Of a stretch of 4,830 nucleotides of DNA, positions 1 to 4,830 are shown piece by piece. Origin of the DNA: a virus. Lineage: Duplodnaviria > Heunggongvirae > Uroviricota > Caudoviricetes. The position numbers and the translations under genes are program-made. A model generated the notes under the pieces. The model ran no database searches. It saw nothing but the letters and a program-made list of their open reading frames with translations, and was not told the DNA's origin. Numbering within the stretch: position 1 is the first letter of the stretch; each line of letters starts with the position of its first letter. Location of the stretch: the IMG/VR virus record IMGVR_UViG_2576861193_000005; one strand, 5' to 3'.

Positions 1-51
1 ACCGCCGGTATCAGCACCCCGCTGACATCCACCATTCTGGAGTTTTACTGA
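1..51 (+). CDS. 3' end of an upstream gene (16 codons, ...TAGISTPLTSTILEFY*), probably terminase large subunit (gpP-like) by P2 gene order; truncated by the window edge
   Basis: Frame 1 is open from base 1 to TGA at 49-51. That stop shares base 51 with the ATG of the portal gene, matching the P2 P/Q overlap as I recall it. No catalytic motif is visible in 16 residues, so identity rests on synteny only. Confidence 0.4.
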   Translation, partial: TAGISTPLTSTILEFY

Positions 52-1107
52 TGAGTAAGAAAAAAGGGAAAACACCGCGACCTGCGGCAAAAACAATCAC
101 CGCCAGCGCCCCGAAAATGGAAGCATTCACCTTTGGCGAGCCGGTGCCGGTACTCGACCGCCGTGACATTCTGGATTACGTCGAGTGCATCAGTAACGGC
201 AGATGGTATGAGCCACCAGTCAGCTTTACCGGTCTGGCAAAAAGCCTGCGTGCTGCCGTGCATCACAGCTCACCGATTTACGTCAAACGTAATATTCTGG
301 CCTCGCAATATTCTGGCTTCAACGTTTATCCCGCATCCGTGGCTTTCGCAACAGGATTTCAGCCGCTTTGTGCTGGATTTTCTGGTGTTCGGTAATGCGT
401 TTCTGGAAAAGCGTTACAGCACCACCGGTAAGGTCATCAGACTGGAAACCTCACCGGCAAAATATACCCGCCGTGGTGTGGAAGAGGATGTTTACTGGTG
501 GGTGCCGTCCTTCAACGAGCCGACAGCCTTCGCACCCGGCTCCGTGTTTCACCTGCTGGAGCCGGATATTAATCAGGAGCTGTACGGCCTGCCGGAATAT
601 CTCAGCGCCCTTAACTCTGCCTGGCTGAATGAGTCGGCCACGCTGTTCCGCCGCAAGTATTACGAAAATGGCGCCGGCGCTCATGCCGGATACATCATGT
701 ACGTCACCGATGCCGTGCAGGATCGCAACGATATCGAAATGCTTCGCGAAAACATGGTTAAGTCGAAAGGCCGCAATAACTTTAAAAATCTGTTTCTCTA
801 TGCCCCACAGGGGAAAGCCGACGGCATTAAAATTATCCCGCTCAGTGAAGTGGCAACGAAGGACGATTTTTTTAATATCAAAAAAGCCAGCGCCGCTGAC
901 CTGCTGGACGCGCATCGCATCCCCTTTCAGTTGATGGGCGGCAAGCCGGAGAACGTCGGGTCACTGGGAGATATTGAGAAAGTGGCAAAGGTCTTTGTCC
1001 GCAATGAGCTAATCCCGTTACAGGACAGGATTCGGGAAATAAACGGCTGGCTCGGTCAGGAGGTCATCCGCTTTAAAAACTACTCACTGGACACTGACAA
1101 CGGCTGA
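51..1107 (+). pseudogene. Q: P2 gpQ-like portal protein gene, disrupted by a +1 frameshift (16-bp insertion near 291-306)
   Basis: ORF 51..395 (frame 3) gives MSKKKGKTPRP...PIYVKRNILAS then junk to a stop at 393-395. ORF 133..1107 (frame 1) is junk until ~298, then RNILASTFIPHPWLSQQDFSRFVLDFLVFGNAFLEKRYS... to a stop at 1105-1107. Both frames encode RNILAS because aatattctggc occurs at 291-301 and again at 307-317. Removing 16 bp joins the frames into a ~346-aa protein, the size and sequence I recall for P2 portal gpQ (344 aa). Confidence 0.8.
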
Positions 1108-1112
1108 ACATC

Positions 1113-1134
1113 GCCGCCTGCGGGCGGCTTTTTT
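1113..1134 (+). terminator. Rho-independent terminator after the portal gene
   Basis: GC stem gccgcc (1113-1118), loop tgcg, ggcggc (1123-1128), then tttttt (1129-1134), starting 6 nt after the Q stop codon. Confidence 0.7.
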
Positions 1135-1276
1135 ACAACCCGCCATCACGCCCTCACACGCTCACCACCGCACAAAACAGCCCGCAGACACACCAACGCC
1201 CCGGCGAACAATCTAAACGCCATCACGACGCGCTCAGACGCTGAAAAAATAAAATCAGCACCACCGCCAGCGCGCA

Positions 1277-1295
1277 GTGCTTTCCCCGCCTCGCC
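1277..1295. other. cos: P2-type cos site (19-nt cohesive-end sequence)
   Basis: gtgctttccccgcctcgcc at 1277-1295 is the exact reverse complement of GGCGAGGCGGGGAAAGCAC, which I recall as the P2/P4 cohesive end. It sits ~170 bp past the portal stop, as in P2, where Q ends ~220 bp from the left genome end. Confidence 0.7.
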
Positions 1296-1312
1296 CGCCC
1301 GCTTCATGGGGT

Positions 1313-1338
1313 GGTTTTAATGCACGGTTTTAATGCAA
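1313..1338. repeat. Two tandem copies of a 13-bp direct repeat (ggttttaatgcac / ggttttaatgcaa) next to cos, followed by a partial third copy (aatgcac, to 1346)
   Basis: Direct reading: 1313-1325 and 1326-1338 differ only at the last base. The repeat lies 18-43 bp from the cos 19-mer. Function unknown. Confidence 0.8.
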
Positions 1339-1397
1339 CAATGCACCTTCTCTAAAACAGGCAGGATAAACTATGAACGATAAAAATCCCCAACAGC

Positions 1398-1421
1398 CAG
1401 TGCATGCAAATACATGCACTG
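1398..1421 (-). terminator. Perfect 9-bp inverted repeat (cagtgcatg / catgcactg, 6-nt spacer) just downstream of the cargo gene stop; possible transcript-end hairpin
   Basis: On the minus-strand RNA the hairpin begins ~19 nt after the TAG stop (1440-1442). A U-run (auuuuuau) follows only after ~11 nt, so it is not a textbook intrinsic terminator. Confidence 0.3.
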
Positions 1422-1439
1422 GTATGCAAATTATAAGCC

Positions 1440-3791
1440 TTAAAGTTCTGTATATATTAGGCGTAGCATATCCTGCGCATAACTTTTCATATCTTCATCA
1501 GTCCATTCACGGATAACGTGCATAGGCTCATTGAGTGCAGTTCTAAACCCATGAATTCTTCTGGCCGTCTCCTCTTCCAAAATACCATCTTCAGCCAGTC
1601 GATTAATACACACAGAAAAATCCGTTCTATCATTTAAGTTGCAGTCTGTCAGTTGTTTGCGATAACGAGAACGGAATTCTGATTCAAGATATGGCCTTAA
1701 AGATAGTATTATTGTCTTATCAGTATCCACACCATTTATAAAATCAACAATCCTCTCATAGGATCTCTCATGGTCTGAAGCTATTAATTGCTCTACCTTC
1801 AGCGGTTCAAAATTAGAACCGTCTTGACCTTGTTTGATCTGAAGAATTCTATCCAAATTAAATTTTTGAGATGTCTTTGCTGCCATTCCTTTATAGTGTG
1901 TAGTAATAAACATCTGTTTTACATAAGGCTGTAATTCATACAACTTCTGCAAAATACAAGATATTCTTTCCTCATCAAAACTTGTTACAGGATCATCCAT
2001 AATAAGAATAGCTTTTGATTTCTCATCATTAGGTAACAAGTAAATTTTAGAAAGAAAGATGCACAAAGCCAAAGCTCGGCGATCTGACTCACTAAACAAA
2101 CAATTAAGTTTGTTTTTTCCAACTGACTTCCCATTAAATGAAACGTCAAGTTCATAAACAATTTTTGTACCCTGCCTGTTTATTTTTTTATTTATAGAAA
2201 ATTTACTAGATCCAACAGAACAGAACAGAGAATTAATGTGCTCAAAATATTTGTTTAAAAATTGCTCCTGGCATTCCTCTAATGTTTTCTTCTTCTCATT
2301 ATAGTTTTTTTCCCTAATATCTATTTCTTTTTTCAGTTCAAGATATTCTCGACAATCTGGCTCAAGCAATAATCTTTTTTTATTAGATTCCCACTGCTCA
2401 AGATCTTTTTGATAGATTCCCAGTAATACATCTAATTTGGTGGAATTGATACTTTCTTTATACTTCACCAACTCATTATTGAGCTGATTAATAATGCTAT
2501 TGTATGATTCCAATTTGCCATGAATTTCATGCTCAAATTGTAGAAGAGACGAAAAATCAAACCCCTTCATTTCGTTGTATACAGCTAATTCTTTCTCATC
2601 ATATATACACTCCAGTGATTGCTGAGCCTTAAGTAGATCTTGGTTAAATGTCAATATATCATTTCTTACTTGATTATAAATAGCACAACATGACTCAAAC
2701 CTTCCATTATTACTTAATTCATTTTTTATCTCATTCTCTAAATACTGTGACAAAACATCAATGTTTTTGCTATGTACATCATCAATTACATTTAATGAGA
2801 TAAATGAAAAATCAAGCCGCCTTATTTCTTTTAATTCTTTTTTTGTACTTTCAATAAAGCGCATAAATGACTCATCAAATGAATCCTTATAAGCACTAAT
2901 CAGCTCTTTTGATTCTCCTGATATACTCTGACCGCAAAACGGACATATTTCTGTGGCCATACCAAGCCCATTTGAGATCCATCCATTAAAATGATCGTGA
3001 GCCTTTATTCTCTCTTTATGTCGCTCTAATATAGAAAGTGCATCGTCATGAATTGTAGCCATTCCAGAAGAAAGACATTTATTAACCCTAATTGAAATAT
3101 CTTTCAACTTTGGTGTACAGTTAATTAAATTAAACAACGGCCTTGCTTTAATATATTTGACGGCTGTTTTCTTCTTTTCAACTTCTTGTATTGACTTAAT
3201 AAGCTCATTTATTTTTGAGTCAACGCAATCATAATCTGTTATGACAGGCTCACTATTAGCATACTCATCAACGTTATCAATTTGGTGTGATTGAATTAAA
3301 TCTTTTTTACTTCTTAACGAACCTCTTAAACTTCTTAATTCTGCATTCTCCTTTTCCAGAGCTTCAAAAGCAGCAACATTGTCTTCACCCAAAATAAATG
3401 CAGTAACACATTCAGAGTTTTCTCGATTAGATACTGTACCTGCCATTACATTTCTATGAACAAAACTCTGATCAAAGATATATAATTTAGAATCTGGTGG
3501 TGGTAATCCTGACCATTTATCTACATAAAATGAAACAACTCTATTTGAACTCCCCTCTGTGAATTGTAAATCAATCTTTGGAGTTACTTCACCATCTCCC
3601 TCCAGAATAGTCTTTCTGTTAACAACCAATTCAGGAGTATTCGTTGATAAAGAATAAAAGATGTCACAAAGAGTACTTTTACCATGTCTATTTTCACCGT
3701 AGATAACATTCATGTTATTAAACTCATAAGAGCTGGAGCGAGCTTTAATATAGTTACCTACGCCCTCTATTAATTTAATCCTCTTTAACAT
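1440..3791 (-). CDS. 783-aa PrrC/RloC-type (AAA_13-like) ABC ATPase with a long coiled-coil insert carrying CxxC, plus a C-terminal domain of unknown function; candidate single-gene anti-phage/abortive-infection protein (RloC-like)
   Basis: Uninterrupted 2352-nt ORF with ATG at 3789-3791, TAG at 1440-1442, and an AAGGA Shine-Dalgarno ~7 nt upstream. Motifs: Walker A GENRHGKST (aa 32-40, nt 3672-3698), Q-loop-like IFDQSF (aa 105-110), CPFC (aa 283-286, nt 2934-2945), signature-like SESDRR (aa 567-572, nt 2076-2093), Walker B/D-loop AILIMDDPVTSFD (aa 594-606), H-loop FITTHY (aa 628-633). Very AT-rich relative to both flanks. Confidence 0.85.
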   Translation of the reverse strand: MLKRIKLIEGVGNYIKARSSSYEFNNMNVIYGENRHGKSTLCDIFYSLSTNTPELVVNRKTILEGDGEVTPKIDLQFTEGSSNRVVSFYVDKWSGLPPPDSKLYIFDQSFVHRNVMAGTVSNRENSECVTAFILGEDNVAAFEALEKENAELRSLRGSLRSKKDLIQSHQIDNVDEYANSEPVITDYDCVDSKINELIKSIQEVEKKKTAVKYIKARPLFNLINCTPKLKDISIRVNKCLSSGMATIHDDALSILERHKERIKAHDHFNGWISNGLGMATEICPFCGQSISGESKELISAYKDSFDESFMRFIESTKKELKEIRRLDFSFISLNVIDDVHSKNIDVLSQYLENEIKNELSNNGRFESCCAIYNQVRNDILTFNQDLLKAQQSLECIYDEKELAVYNEMKGFDFSSLLQFEHEIHGKLESYNSIINQLNNELVKYKESINSTKLDVLLGIYQKDLEQWESNKKRLLLEPDCREYLELKKEIDIREKNYNEKKKTLEECQEQFLNKYFEHINSLFCSVGSSKFSINKKINRQGTKIVYELDVSFNGKSVGKNKLNCLFSESDRRALALCIFLSKIYLLPNDEKSKAILIMDDPVTSFDEERISCILQKLYELQPYVKQMFITTHYKGMAAKTSQKFNLDRILQIKQGQDGSNFEPLKVEQLIASDHERSYERIVDFINGVDTDKTIILSLRPYLESEFRSRYRKQLTDCNLNDRTDFSVCINRLAEDGILEEETARRIHGFRTALNEPMHVIREWTDEDMKSYAQDMLRLIYTEL

Positions 3792-3853
3792 TCTTTTTCC
3801 TTAATTAATTGTTAAGTTTCAATTACAACCAACACAATAAACTTAAGAAAATC

Positions 3854-3882
3854 AATATAATGCACAACAACAAAACTCACAA
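3854..3882 (-). promoter_or_regulatory. Candidate sigma70 promoter for the cargo gene (-35 TTGTGA, 17-nt spacer, -10 TATATT on the minus strand)
   Basis: On the + strand, tcacaa (3877-3882) and aatata (3854-3859) are 17 nt apart. The predicted start near 3846 gives a ~55-nt leader. AT-rich DNA yields many such matches, so this is tentative. Confidence 0.3.
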
Positions 3883-4015
3883 TACCTTACACGCTCGTTA
3901 CCTACTGCAAACTTATCTTGCAATACTAATAATCAAGTTTGAAATCATAATATCACCACATGAAATTGCCATATCGCAGAGGCTCCTTACTCGACAACTA
4001 AAATGTTTATACTCC

Positions 4016-4038
4016 AAAAAGTAAGTTTCTTACTTTTT
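4016..4038. terminator. Perfect 10-bp inverted repeat (aaaaagtaag ttt cttacttttt) between the GC-rich upstream gene and the cargo gene; possible weak bidirectional terminator
   Basis: The hairpin lies 20-42 nt downstream of the upstream gene's TGA (4058-4060). The stem is AU-rich and the U-run forms part of the stem, so predicted stability is low. Confidence 0.3.
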
Positions 4039-4057
4039 AACCGCATTAATTTCTACA

Positions 4058-4830
4058 TCACCTAAAACCTATCCACTCATCAGCGACCGGATACGTGAAT
4101 TGTTTCCCGTCATAATTTACAGTCGCGCCACGCGCCAGCGCCTCAAGCTCCCATCGCTGCGGCCTGATACCGTTCTGAGCAAGGTCAACGCGGATACGGG
4201 TGATTTGCATTCTTTCCGACCGGGTCAGTCTGGCCGATGGTGCAATTTCATGTAGTTTTAACGGGCTTCCGTTTCTTTGCTGACGGTTTGGTCTTCTCAG
4301 GCCGTGTTTTAATGCGCTTCTGAGCGCCCTCACAACCTCCGGGTCATTCCATTCGATAACACCGTCATCAACCAGATTAAGCACTGCTGCGGCGTGCTCA
4401 GAAGGTGTGGGAGCCGGTAACGAAGTATCACCGCCGGTGAGCTTTCCACAGTTATTGACAGGACTCCGAGGCGCGGCGATGCCGCTTTTTAAAGTCAAAG
4501 GCTCAACGACCGGCACTTTCGGAACAATGCGCCAGTCCGTCGTTCTGGTGATATGAATATGACGCGCGCCGAGATGCGGCGCGTAAATGCCGACCACTCT
4601 CTCGACTTCTTCCTCGTACTCGTTAACGTCATCCGACGGGCTACGGGCGACCCTGACAGTCTGACAATCGCGCGGGACATTTGCCCCGCCCTGCGCGCTG
4701 ATATACAACGCAAAATCACCACTGTCTGCAGCGGCGCGTGCAGCCTCGACGCGTTCATCAAACTCATCAGCAATGCTGACGCCGCGAGGCAATTTGCGTA
4801 GTTCACGGTAAGCCCCCATTGTCGGCAGGC
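4058..4830 (-). CDS. 3' portion (at least 257 codons) of a GC-rich prophage core gene running off the window; by P2 gene order possibly replication initiation protein gpA, identity unverified
   Basis: ORF 4058..4819 with TGA at 4058-4060. The frame stays open upstream of the Met at 4819 to the window edge and no Shine-Dalgarno precedes that ATG (upstream reads gcctgccgaca), so the true start is probably beyond the window. GC-rich like the Q side. I do not recognise a diagnostic motif. Confidence 0.6.
   Translation of the reverse strand, partial: LPTMGAYRELRKLPRGVSIADEFDERVEAARAAADSGDFALYISAQGGANVPRDCQTVRVARSPSDDVNEYEEEVERVVGIYAPHLGARHIHITRTTDWRIVPKVPVVEPLTLKSGIAAPRSPVNNCGKLTGGDTSLPAPTPSEHAAAVLNLVDDGVIEWNDPEVVRALRSALKHGLRRPNRQQRNGSPLKLHEIAPSARLTRSERMQITRIRVDLAQNGIRPQRWELEALARGATVNYDGKQFTYPVADEWIGFR

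Follow-up and report, generated by a model that had tools for sequence, protein, structure and literature searches.

A prophage-borne gene for a divergent RloC-like protein with a split ABC ATPase head and a putative HEPN nuclease domain

The window analysed here, a 4,830-nucleotide stretch of a Caudoviricetes genome (IMG/VR record IMGVR_UViG_2576861193_000005), contains a gene for a 783-amino acid (aa) protein in which an ATP-binding cassette (ABC) ATPase head is split by a long helical insert with a CPFC motif and is followed by a C-terminal domain of predicted HEPN fold. Judged from sequence and profile comparisons, this protein (hereafter the window protein) is homologous to RloC-like proteins along its whole length and carries a divergent nuclease domain; it is a divergent branch that differs from canonical RloC. 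With its low GC content, the gene forms an insert in the cos-proximal gpA–cos–gpQ hotspot of a P2-like E. coli prophage, and a function in anti-phage defence is plausible. The reading favoured here, to which we give a probability of roughly 0.65, is that of an abortive-infection enzyme of the RloC/PrrC type, made up of one polypeptide and carried by a prophage, for which we infer RNase activity, a tRNA target, a trigger and an abortive phenotype by analogy. The features of the gene and its product are as follows.

1440..3791, minus strand: complete open reading frame (ORF) for the ABC ATPase, coiled-coil/CPFC insert and HEPN domain (783 aa plus stop codon)
3426..3791, minus strand: N-terminal half of the ABC ATPase head (aa 1-122), with beta strands and the P-loop helix in the AlphaFold2 (AF2) model; translation
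3672..3698, minus strand: Walker A motif GENRHGKST (aa 32-40, K38), with G37 and K38 ~100% conserved
2217..3425, minus strand: helical insert (aa 123-525), with antiparallel helices 123-215 and 451-525 around a distal helical region (AF2 secondary structure, Foldseek matches)
2928..2945, minus strand: CPFCGQ, putative zinc hook (aa 283-288; C283 and C286), both Cys invariant in 91/91 sequences and aligned with the CPFC of RloC-like proteins
1797..2216, minus strand: C-terminal half of the ABC ATPase head (aa 526-665), from the AF2 model, the translation and a RecF-like signature/Walker B match
2064..2096, minus strand: ABC signature FSESDRRALAL (aa 566-576), from translation and conservation
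1974..2012, minus strand: Walker B and D-loop AILIMDDPVTSFD (aa 594-606; D599, D600 and D606), these residues invariant
1893..1904, minus strand: H-loop TTHY (aa 630-633; H632), invariant
1443..1796, minus strand: HEPN-fold domain, putative RNase effector (aa 666-783; ~118 residues that follow the ATPase)
1683..1697, minus strand: RPYLE, R699-x3-E703, the first two residues of a putative Arg-Glu-His triad (R699 100%, E703 95%), on R646/E650 of RloC-like proteins
1518..1544, minus strand: RTALNEPMH, R750-x3-N754-x3-H758, putative HEPN-type catalytic motif (91%, 99% and 99%), with N754/H758 on N686/H690

Translation confirmed the 783-aa ORF described in the initial annotation and placed the Walker A, signature, Walker B/D-loop and H-loop motifs at exactly the residue numbers given there. 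Conservation was scored in 91 full-length representatives of 50%-identity clusters. K38, D599, D600, H632, C283 and C286 are conserved in 98-100% of these sequences, and the ATPase and CPFC motifs are thus not chance occurrences. The Q-loop that had been proposed in addition is not supported, because Q108 occupies the expected site but is not conserved among relatives, in which T, S and D are commoner.

In Pfam, no family other than AAA_13 (PF13166) passed its threshold (117.7 bits, with the cutoff at 36; E 8.7e-34). The match spans aa 12-634 of the protein and profile positions 3-571 of 713, in agreement with the earlier assignment to this family and not to SbcC or RecN. SMC_N reached 17.9 bits against a cutoff of 40, and AAA_23 was also under the Pfam threshold. 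No NCBIfam model scored above threshold, with only partial RecF and ABC-transporter matches, and a PDB sequence search with the whole protein matched only the RecF signature/Walker B region. In PADLOC, the PDC-S06 model PDLC04895 was matched end to end (positions 1-780 of 784, E 2.7e-154), and no match to Old was found. PDC candidates arise by ‘guilt by embedding’ and are not experimentally validated (Payne et al.). PDC-S06 brings together a wide range of AAA_13 sub-models and takes in canonical RloC-like proteins as well.

The full-length AF2 model, built with 49 homologues, has a mean predicted local distance difference test score (pLDDT) of 83.9. It shows a beta-rich head half (1-122), resumption of the head at 531-665 and a helical C-terminal domain (666-783). 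In a Foldseek search against PDB, Rad50, SMC heads and Lamassu LmuB ranked highest, and the insert contains long antiparallel helices, as expected from the Rad50-like fold that had been proposed. The modelled protein thus shares a split ABC head and an antiparallel coiled coil with Rad50/SbcC and LmuB, as well as the Rad50-style CxxC motif, but differs from them in its additional fused HEPN domain. Rad50/SbcC have Mre11/SbcD and Lamassu has LmuA as partner, whereas neither is encoded beside the window gene. It was also considered that the protein is a Rad50/SbcC/RecN-like repair or chromosome-maintenance ATPase whose C-terminal bundle is a non-catalytic, HEPN-like binding domain. This reading is very improbable: AAA_13 is the top Pfam family and SMC_N stays far below its cutoff, no Mre11/SbcD-type gene adjoins the window gene or the relatives examined, the near-invariant R, E, N and H of the HEPN domain favour catalysis, and the genes reside in a defence hotspot, a defence island or restriction-modification (R-M) contexts. 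On these grounds, both the SbcC/RecN and the non-catalytic HEPN readings were rejected.

The stretch between the head halves, described initially as long and rich in E, K, L, I and N, corresponds to the insert of ~400 residues at aa 123-525. It is also rich in S and is nearly all helix in the AF2 prediction. Its CPFC motif, located in a mid-insert loop, aligns with the CPFC of genuine RloC-like proteins, which sustains the zinc-hook proposal, zinc binding itself being putative. In addition to C283/C286, further residues of the insert are near-invariant (H258, W271, G275, Q288, Y301, F305, K400, R473 and C480; aa 258-480, ~2352-3020), and this conservation suggests that the distal insert is a structured module and not a plain coiled coil.

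The extra C-terminal domain noted previously was located at aa ~666-783 and has a predicted all-alpha HEPN fold, that of the superfamily of PrrC and RloC nucleases. A separate model of aa 664-783 reached a pLDDT of 85.8 and a predicted template modelling score (pTM) of 0.77, and the best 24 Foldseek matches listed were all HEPN toxins, with non-significant E-values. Weak matches to Pfam DUF4145, a family of Pfam's HEPN clan, were found in 6 of 18 family members (best E 3e-4). A PDB sequence search with the C-domain profile returned S20 and SRP54 only, both judged to be chance matches. When the same profile was searched against 1.84 billion cluster representatives, only 292 proteins were matched at E <= 0.001, most of them ~780 aa long and the shorter ones fragment-like; the domain is thus specific to the ABC-ATPase/insert/HEPN architecture. 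A word-indexed homologue search with this profile yielded 5 fragments only. The HEPN superfamily includes the nuclease domains found in PrrC and in RloC, and ABC-HEPN proteins have been noted in prophages (Anantharaman et al., PMC3710099).

RloC was defined by PrrC-like ABC motifs, a coiled-coil/CXXC zinc-hook insert and a C-proximal Arg-X3-Glu-X36-52-His triad, in proteins of 658-897 aa (Davidov & Kaufmann 2008, PMC2610378). In the enzyme tested, the triad was R692/E696/H737, and the His is often preceded by Ser (PMC2610378). RloC is a wobble nucleotide-excising anticodon nuclease controlled by a DNA-dependent ATPase (PMC2610378). The window protein (783 aa, its family 733-803 aa) falls in this size range, has the RloC-type ABC motifs (K38, S567/D570, D599/D600/D606 and H632, invariant or nearly so), and contains an ATPase-splitting coiled-coil insert with a CXXC motif for which a zinc-hook role is predicted. 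Three comparators were used, namely a 742-aa protein from the gpQ–gpA hotspot of Enterobacter phage ENT4, a related protein of 738 aa from a P2-like prophage of APEC O1, and a protein of Streptococcus phage Javan105 annotated as ‘translation-disabling ACNase RloC’. The ENT4 and Javan105 proteins match AAA_13 profile positions 10-713 with 367-378 bits and the PADLOC PrrC model at 2e-14 and 2e-7. Because they also fall in PDC-S06, this name is PADLOC's label for RloC-like AAA_13 proteins.

Identity between the window and ENT4 proteins was 23% over 376 aa, with the CPFC motifs and the C-terminal head halves aligned; direct similarity to RloC-like proteins is limited to the hook and ATPase regions. 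Profile-profile comparison with the RloC-like family extended over residues 6-779 (probability 99.9%, E 1e-31) and placed R699/E703 on R646/E650 and N754/H758 on N686/H690. The same register was obtained when the C-domain profiles alone were aligned (score 22.7 versus 10.8 +/- 1.8, maximum 19.1, in 100 column shuffles). The window protein is thus homologous to RloC-like proteins over its whole length, with a divergent version of the nuclease domain. With single RloC sequences, hhalign gave no match to the C-domain profile; the RloC-like family profile was required for it. Both groups have ~740-800 aa, the ABC motifs, a helical insert with W-x3-G...CPFC-x-Q and a C-terminal HEPN-type domain with R-x3-E ... 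N-x3-H, and both belong to PDC-S06 and occur at the P2 gpA–gpQ hotspot (ENT4 and APEC O1). They differ in that the RloC-like proteins match the C-terminal part of AAA_13 and the PrrC model, whereas the window C-terminal domain matches neither. The spacing from Glu to His is 36-40 in the RloC-like family, whose own pattern is R-x3-E-x36-40-SH, and 53-54 in the window family (X54 in the window protein, X53 in 79 of the 91 relatives). The residue before the triad His is S in the former and mostly H or M in the latter (H in 62, S in 15 and M in 6 sequences), and the comparators have R-x6-H with N at -4, as opposed to R-x3-N-x3-H. The suggestion that the protein is RloC-like is thus supported in all parts open to checking (family, fold, hook, C-terminal fold, triad register and locus), whereas the missing match to the C-terminal part of AAA_13 and to the PrrC model and the Glu-His spacing mark it as a divergent branch.

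Several results weigh against an RloC/PrrC-type enzyme. The AAA_13 match stops at position 571 of 713, leaving the C-terminal domain unmatched by the C-terminal part of that profile, and the PADLOC PrrC model (PDLC02360) did not match the window protein at E <= 1. The Foldseek E-values of the C-terminal domain were at least 0.25, and the C-domain-only hhalign result was weak (probability 10%, E 0.003). The Glu-to-His spacing of 53-54 falls just outside the published RloC range of 36-52, and R750-H758 forms R-x7-H instead of the canonical HEPN R-x4-6-H. The local pLDDT at CPFC was <50, so its position at the coiled-coil apex is not established by the AF2 model. HEPN RNases may also attack mRNA or rRNA instead of tRNA. 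A literature search that covered AAA_13/HEPN anti-phage studies and RloC cryo-EM found no experimental work on this subfamily.

The HEPN domain has a greater length, is divergent (R-x3-E-x53-H, R-x7-H) and escapes the PrrC and AAA_13 C-terminal profiles, so that it might have a different RNA target or cleavage chemistry, together with a different trigger, for instance linear phage DNA ends or the cos ends of a competitor, sensed via the coiled coil and hook; we regard this as a tentative possibility, on the unlikely side. If it holds, the gene would represent a distinct autonomous single-gene abortive-infection system that replaces old/tin in P2-like prophages and serves as a back-up embedded in type I R-M operons. 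A rival reading, which keeps the defence role and the architecture and makes the HEPN domain a general or differently targeted RNase (mRNA, rRNA or another tRNA site), is rather unlikely. Its action would in that case be like that of RnlA or LsoA, or like the collateral cleavage by Cas13, and not the RloC-type excision of a wobble nucleotide, but the catalytic-type residues of the domain are collinear with the RloC-like triad, and PrrC and RloC, all the characterised ABC-HEPN fusions of the family, cut tRNA anticodon loops (PMC2610378, PMC3710099).

In the favoured mechanism of an RloC/PrrC-type abortive-infection enzyme, the Rad50-like ABC head, split by the coiled coil with its CPFC hook, would act as sensor and switch, and the C-terminal HEPN domain would be the effector, a metal-independent RNase whose likeliest target is the host tRNA anticodon loop. 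In the resting state, the ATPase and hook would hold the HEPN domains inactive; in RloC itself, mutating the hook turns the nuclease on. An infection cue would alter nucleotide-dependent head engagement, upon which a composite active site would be built from two HEPN domains. Analogy with RloC suggests DNA ends or breaks as this cue, with a phage anti-restriction factor as the alternative. Cleavage of RNA would lead to translation arrest and block the superinfecting phage, to the benefit of the P2-like prophage that bears the gene in its cos-proximal accessory hotspot.

Relatives are sparse and were found in Gammaproteobacteria, Bacteroidota, Desulfobacterota, Patescibacteria, Planctomycetota, Clostridia and one ANME-1 archaeon. 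They are encoded on nine IMG/VR viral contigs (7 of the 9 matched over the full query length), whereas none of 50,697 phage genomes was matched when the window protein was searched with tblastn. At 23 of 79 loci the gene is flanked by type I R-M genes, and all but one of these 23 carry distant full-length homologues (25-30% identity). Where the gene is embedded, e.g. in L061 and L042, the order is hsdM-hsdS-gene-hsdR, with one strand coding for all and gaps of -4 to 22 bp, as confirmed by Pfam scans for L061 (the ANME-1 archaeon; L061:631-9293) and L042 (L042:74-9721); the remaining 21 R-M-flanked loci fall among L010-L092. This is the arrangement of PrrC and of the ‘restriction-linked orf’ (rlo) genes, and it agrees with the ‘guilt by embedding’ origin of the PADLOC PDC candidates. 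The close relatives (33-41% identity) have no conserved neighbour or partner gene and no adjacent R-M genes, and the closer clade that includes the E. coli gene is solitary, without R-M linkage.

These neighbourhoods bear on a further alternative, in which the window protein is non-autonomous and PrrC-like, being silenced and triggered in trans via a chromosomal type I R-M enzyme, such that a phage anti-restriction protein disabling that enzyme would set it off rather than its own sensing of DNA damage. PrrC operates in this way and RloC has been proposed to interact with R-M in trans (PMC2610378, PMC3710099), and the R-M genes at 23 of the 79 loci, with distant full-length homologues embedded in the hsd operon, point in the same direction. 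However, neither the E. coli P2 hotspot nor the closer clade has adjacent R-M genes or a conserved partner, and the coiled-coil/hook insert, the proposed basis of RloC self-regulation, is retained. We consider this alternative quite improbable. PrrC combines an ABC-type NTPase with a C-terminal HEPN nuclease domain containing an Arg-Glu-His triad, as the window protein is predicted to do, and the hsdM-hsdS-X-hsdR position of PrrC is also occupied by distant homologues of the window protein. PrrC has ~340-416 aa and lacks the coiled-coil/hook insert, whereas the window protein has 783 aa with a 400-aa insert; E. coli PrrC resides inside the EcoprrI type I R-M locus and the window gene between gpA and cos/gpQ.

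Other relatives occupy varied contexts. The Vibrio homologue has nSTAND3, DEAD-helicase and VspR genes nearby, the Aliikangiella homologue lies 3.5 kb from a Shedu-type gene, and the Zhongshania homologue has unrelated neighbours. The Vibrio parahaemolyticus gene is located in an apparent defence island (L004:1-5727, 9274-14337), where the neighbouring genes code for two ResIII helicases, one of them a DEAD/ResIII protein of 1199 aa, as well as for a family B DNA polymerase, a VspR-like regulator and an nSTAND3 protein.

The placement of the gene in a prophage defence hotspot, also part of the initial annotation, is borne out by the flanking gpQ and gpA genes, the P2 cos 19-mer and the low-GC insert (~31% GC inside the ATPase gene versus ~53% in the flanks). 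The flanks were annotated from a 98.2% identical E. coli prophage, giving the following features.

51..1107, plus strand: portal gene gpQ (P2), frameshifted; annotation of the matched E. coli prophage
1277..1295, minus strand: GGCGAGGCGGGGAAAGCAC, an exact match (0 expected by chance) to the cohesive-end 19-mer of P2 cos, a marker of the cos-proximal hotspot
3792..4057, minus strand: AT-rich upstream region with presumed promoter and AAGGA ribosome-binding site; sequence
4058..4819, minus strand: replication endonuclease gene gpA (P2), C-terminal part, running beyond the window; annotation of the matched E. coli prophage

The ATPase gene was found in 23 of 5,426 complete E. coli genomes, without exception at the gpA–gpQ locus, as two alleles (>=99% and ~86% identical), and is annotated only as ‘AAA family ATPase’. 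The gpA–gpQ locus is a hotspot of anti-phage systems, in which P2 itself has old and tin, and the fifth system in the published list (‘5’, AAA_13) is annotated as ‘RloC-like’ (Rousset et al., PMC9122126). The ENT4-type protein corresponds to this system. The subfamily is already known as the PADLOC candidate PDC-S06, RloC-like AAA_13 genes are already on record at the hotspot, and no current view would be overturned by the window gene.

P2 Old, an ABC ATPase-TOPRIM protein, has been reported as an abortive tRNase (bioRxiv 10.64898/2026.07.10.737580). Because Old resides at the same hotspot, it is plausible that the window gene is a functionally analogous replacement of it. Both genes occupy the cos-proximal gpA–gpQ accessory locus, and by analogy their products would work alike, with an ABC ATPase as sensor and, joined to it, a nuclease as the effector by which translation is arrested. 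The effector is TOPRIM in Old and HEPN in the window protein, and Old lacks the long coiled coil and the CPFC hook, both of which are predicted in the window protein. The two genes at one locus illustrate effector swapping between TOPRIM and HEPN. If active, the window protein would be a validated addition to the ABC ATPase-HEPN anticodon-nuclease family, for which no match was present in the PDB copy searched and RloC and PrrC are the only models of activation. As a compact single gene, located in the prophage defence hotspot that is best characterised, the window gene can easily be cloned and tested, and the three settings (solitary prophage, defence island and type I R-M operon) would allow self-regulated and R-M-regulated versions to be compared.

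The APEC O1 prophage carries its canonical RloC-like AAA_13 protein (MRNILEYYF...RGSHSD) at L009:45932-48148 on the minus strand (NC_008563.1 925932-928148). The gene lies in the opposite orientation to the window gene, which runs the same way as gpA. This 738-aa protein is probably ‘APECO1_4465’, the ABC-HEPN prototype of Anantharaman et al. 2013. That prophage has the canonical protein and not the window protein.

Two promoter-like sites (3882-3854 and 3972-3944) are present upstream of the ATPase gene, and in a promoter scan of 1000-4200 the number of sites was no higher than in shuffled sequence. A 71-aa TTG-start ORF in this region (3809-4024, plus strand) is of low complexity, is unannotated in all matched genomes and is probably not a gene. 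Downstream of the ATPase gene, at 145 bp from its stop codon, is the cos 19-mer, which is spanned by a 53-aa ‘hypothetical protein’ (ORF 1146-1307, minus strand; strain LR-72) that is probably spurious. Short imperfect tandem duplications were identified at 290-305 (16 bp), 669-674 (6 bp) and 1312-1324 (13 bp), all three appearing as gaps in the alignment to strain SRY149, and where the window matches other complete E. coli genomes (those examined) over nearly its full length, it exceeds them by ~35 bp. The 16-bp duplication frameshifts gpQ, splitting it into ORFs 51-395 and 133-1107, which means either a defective prophage or errors in the sequence.

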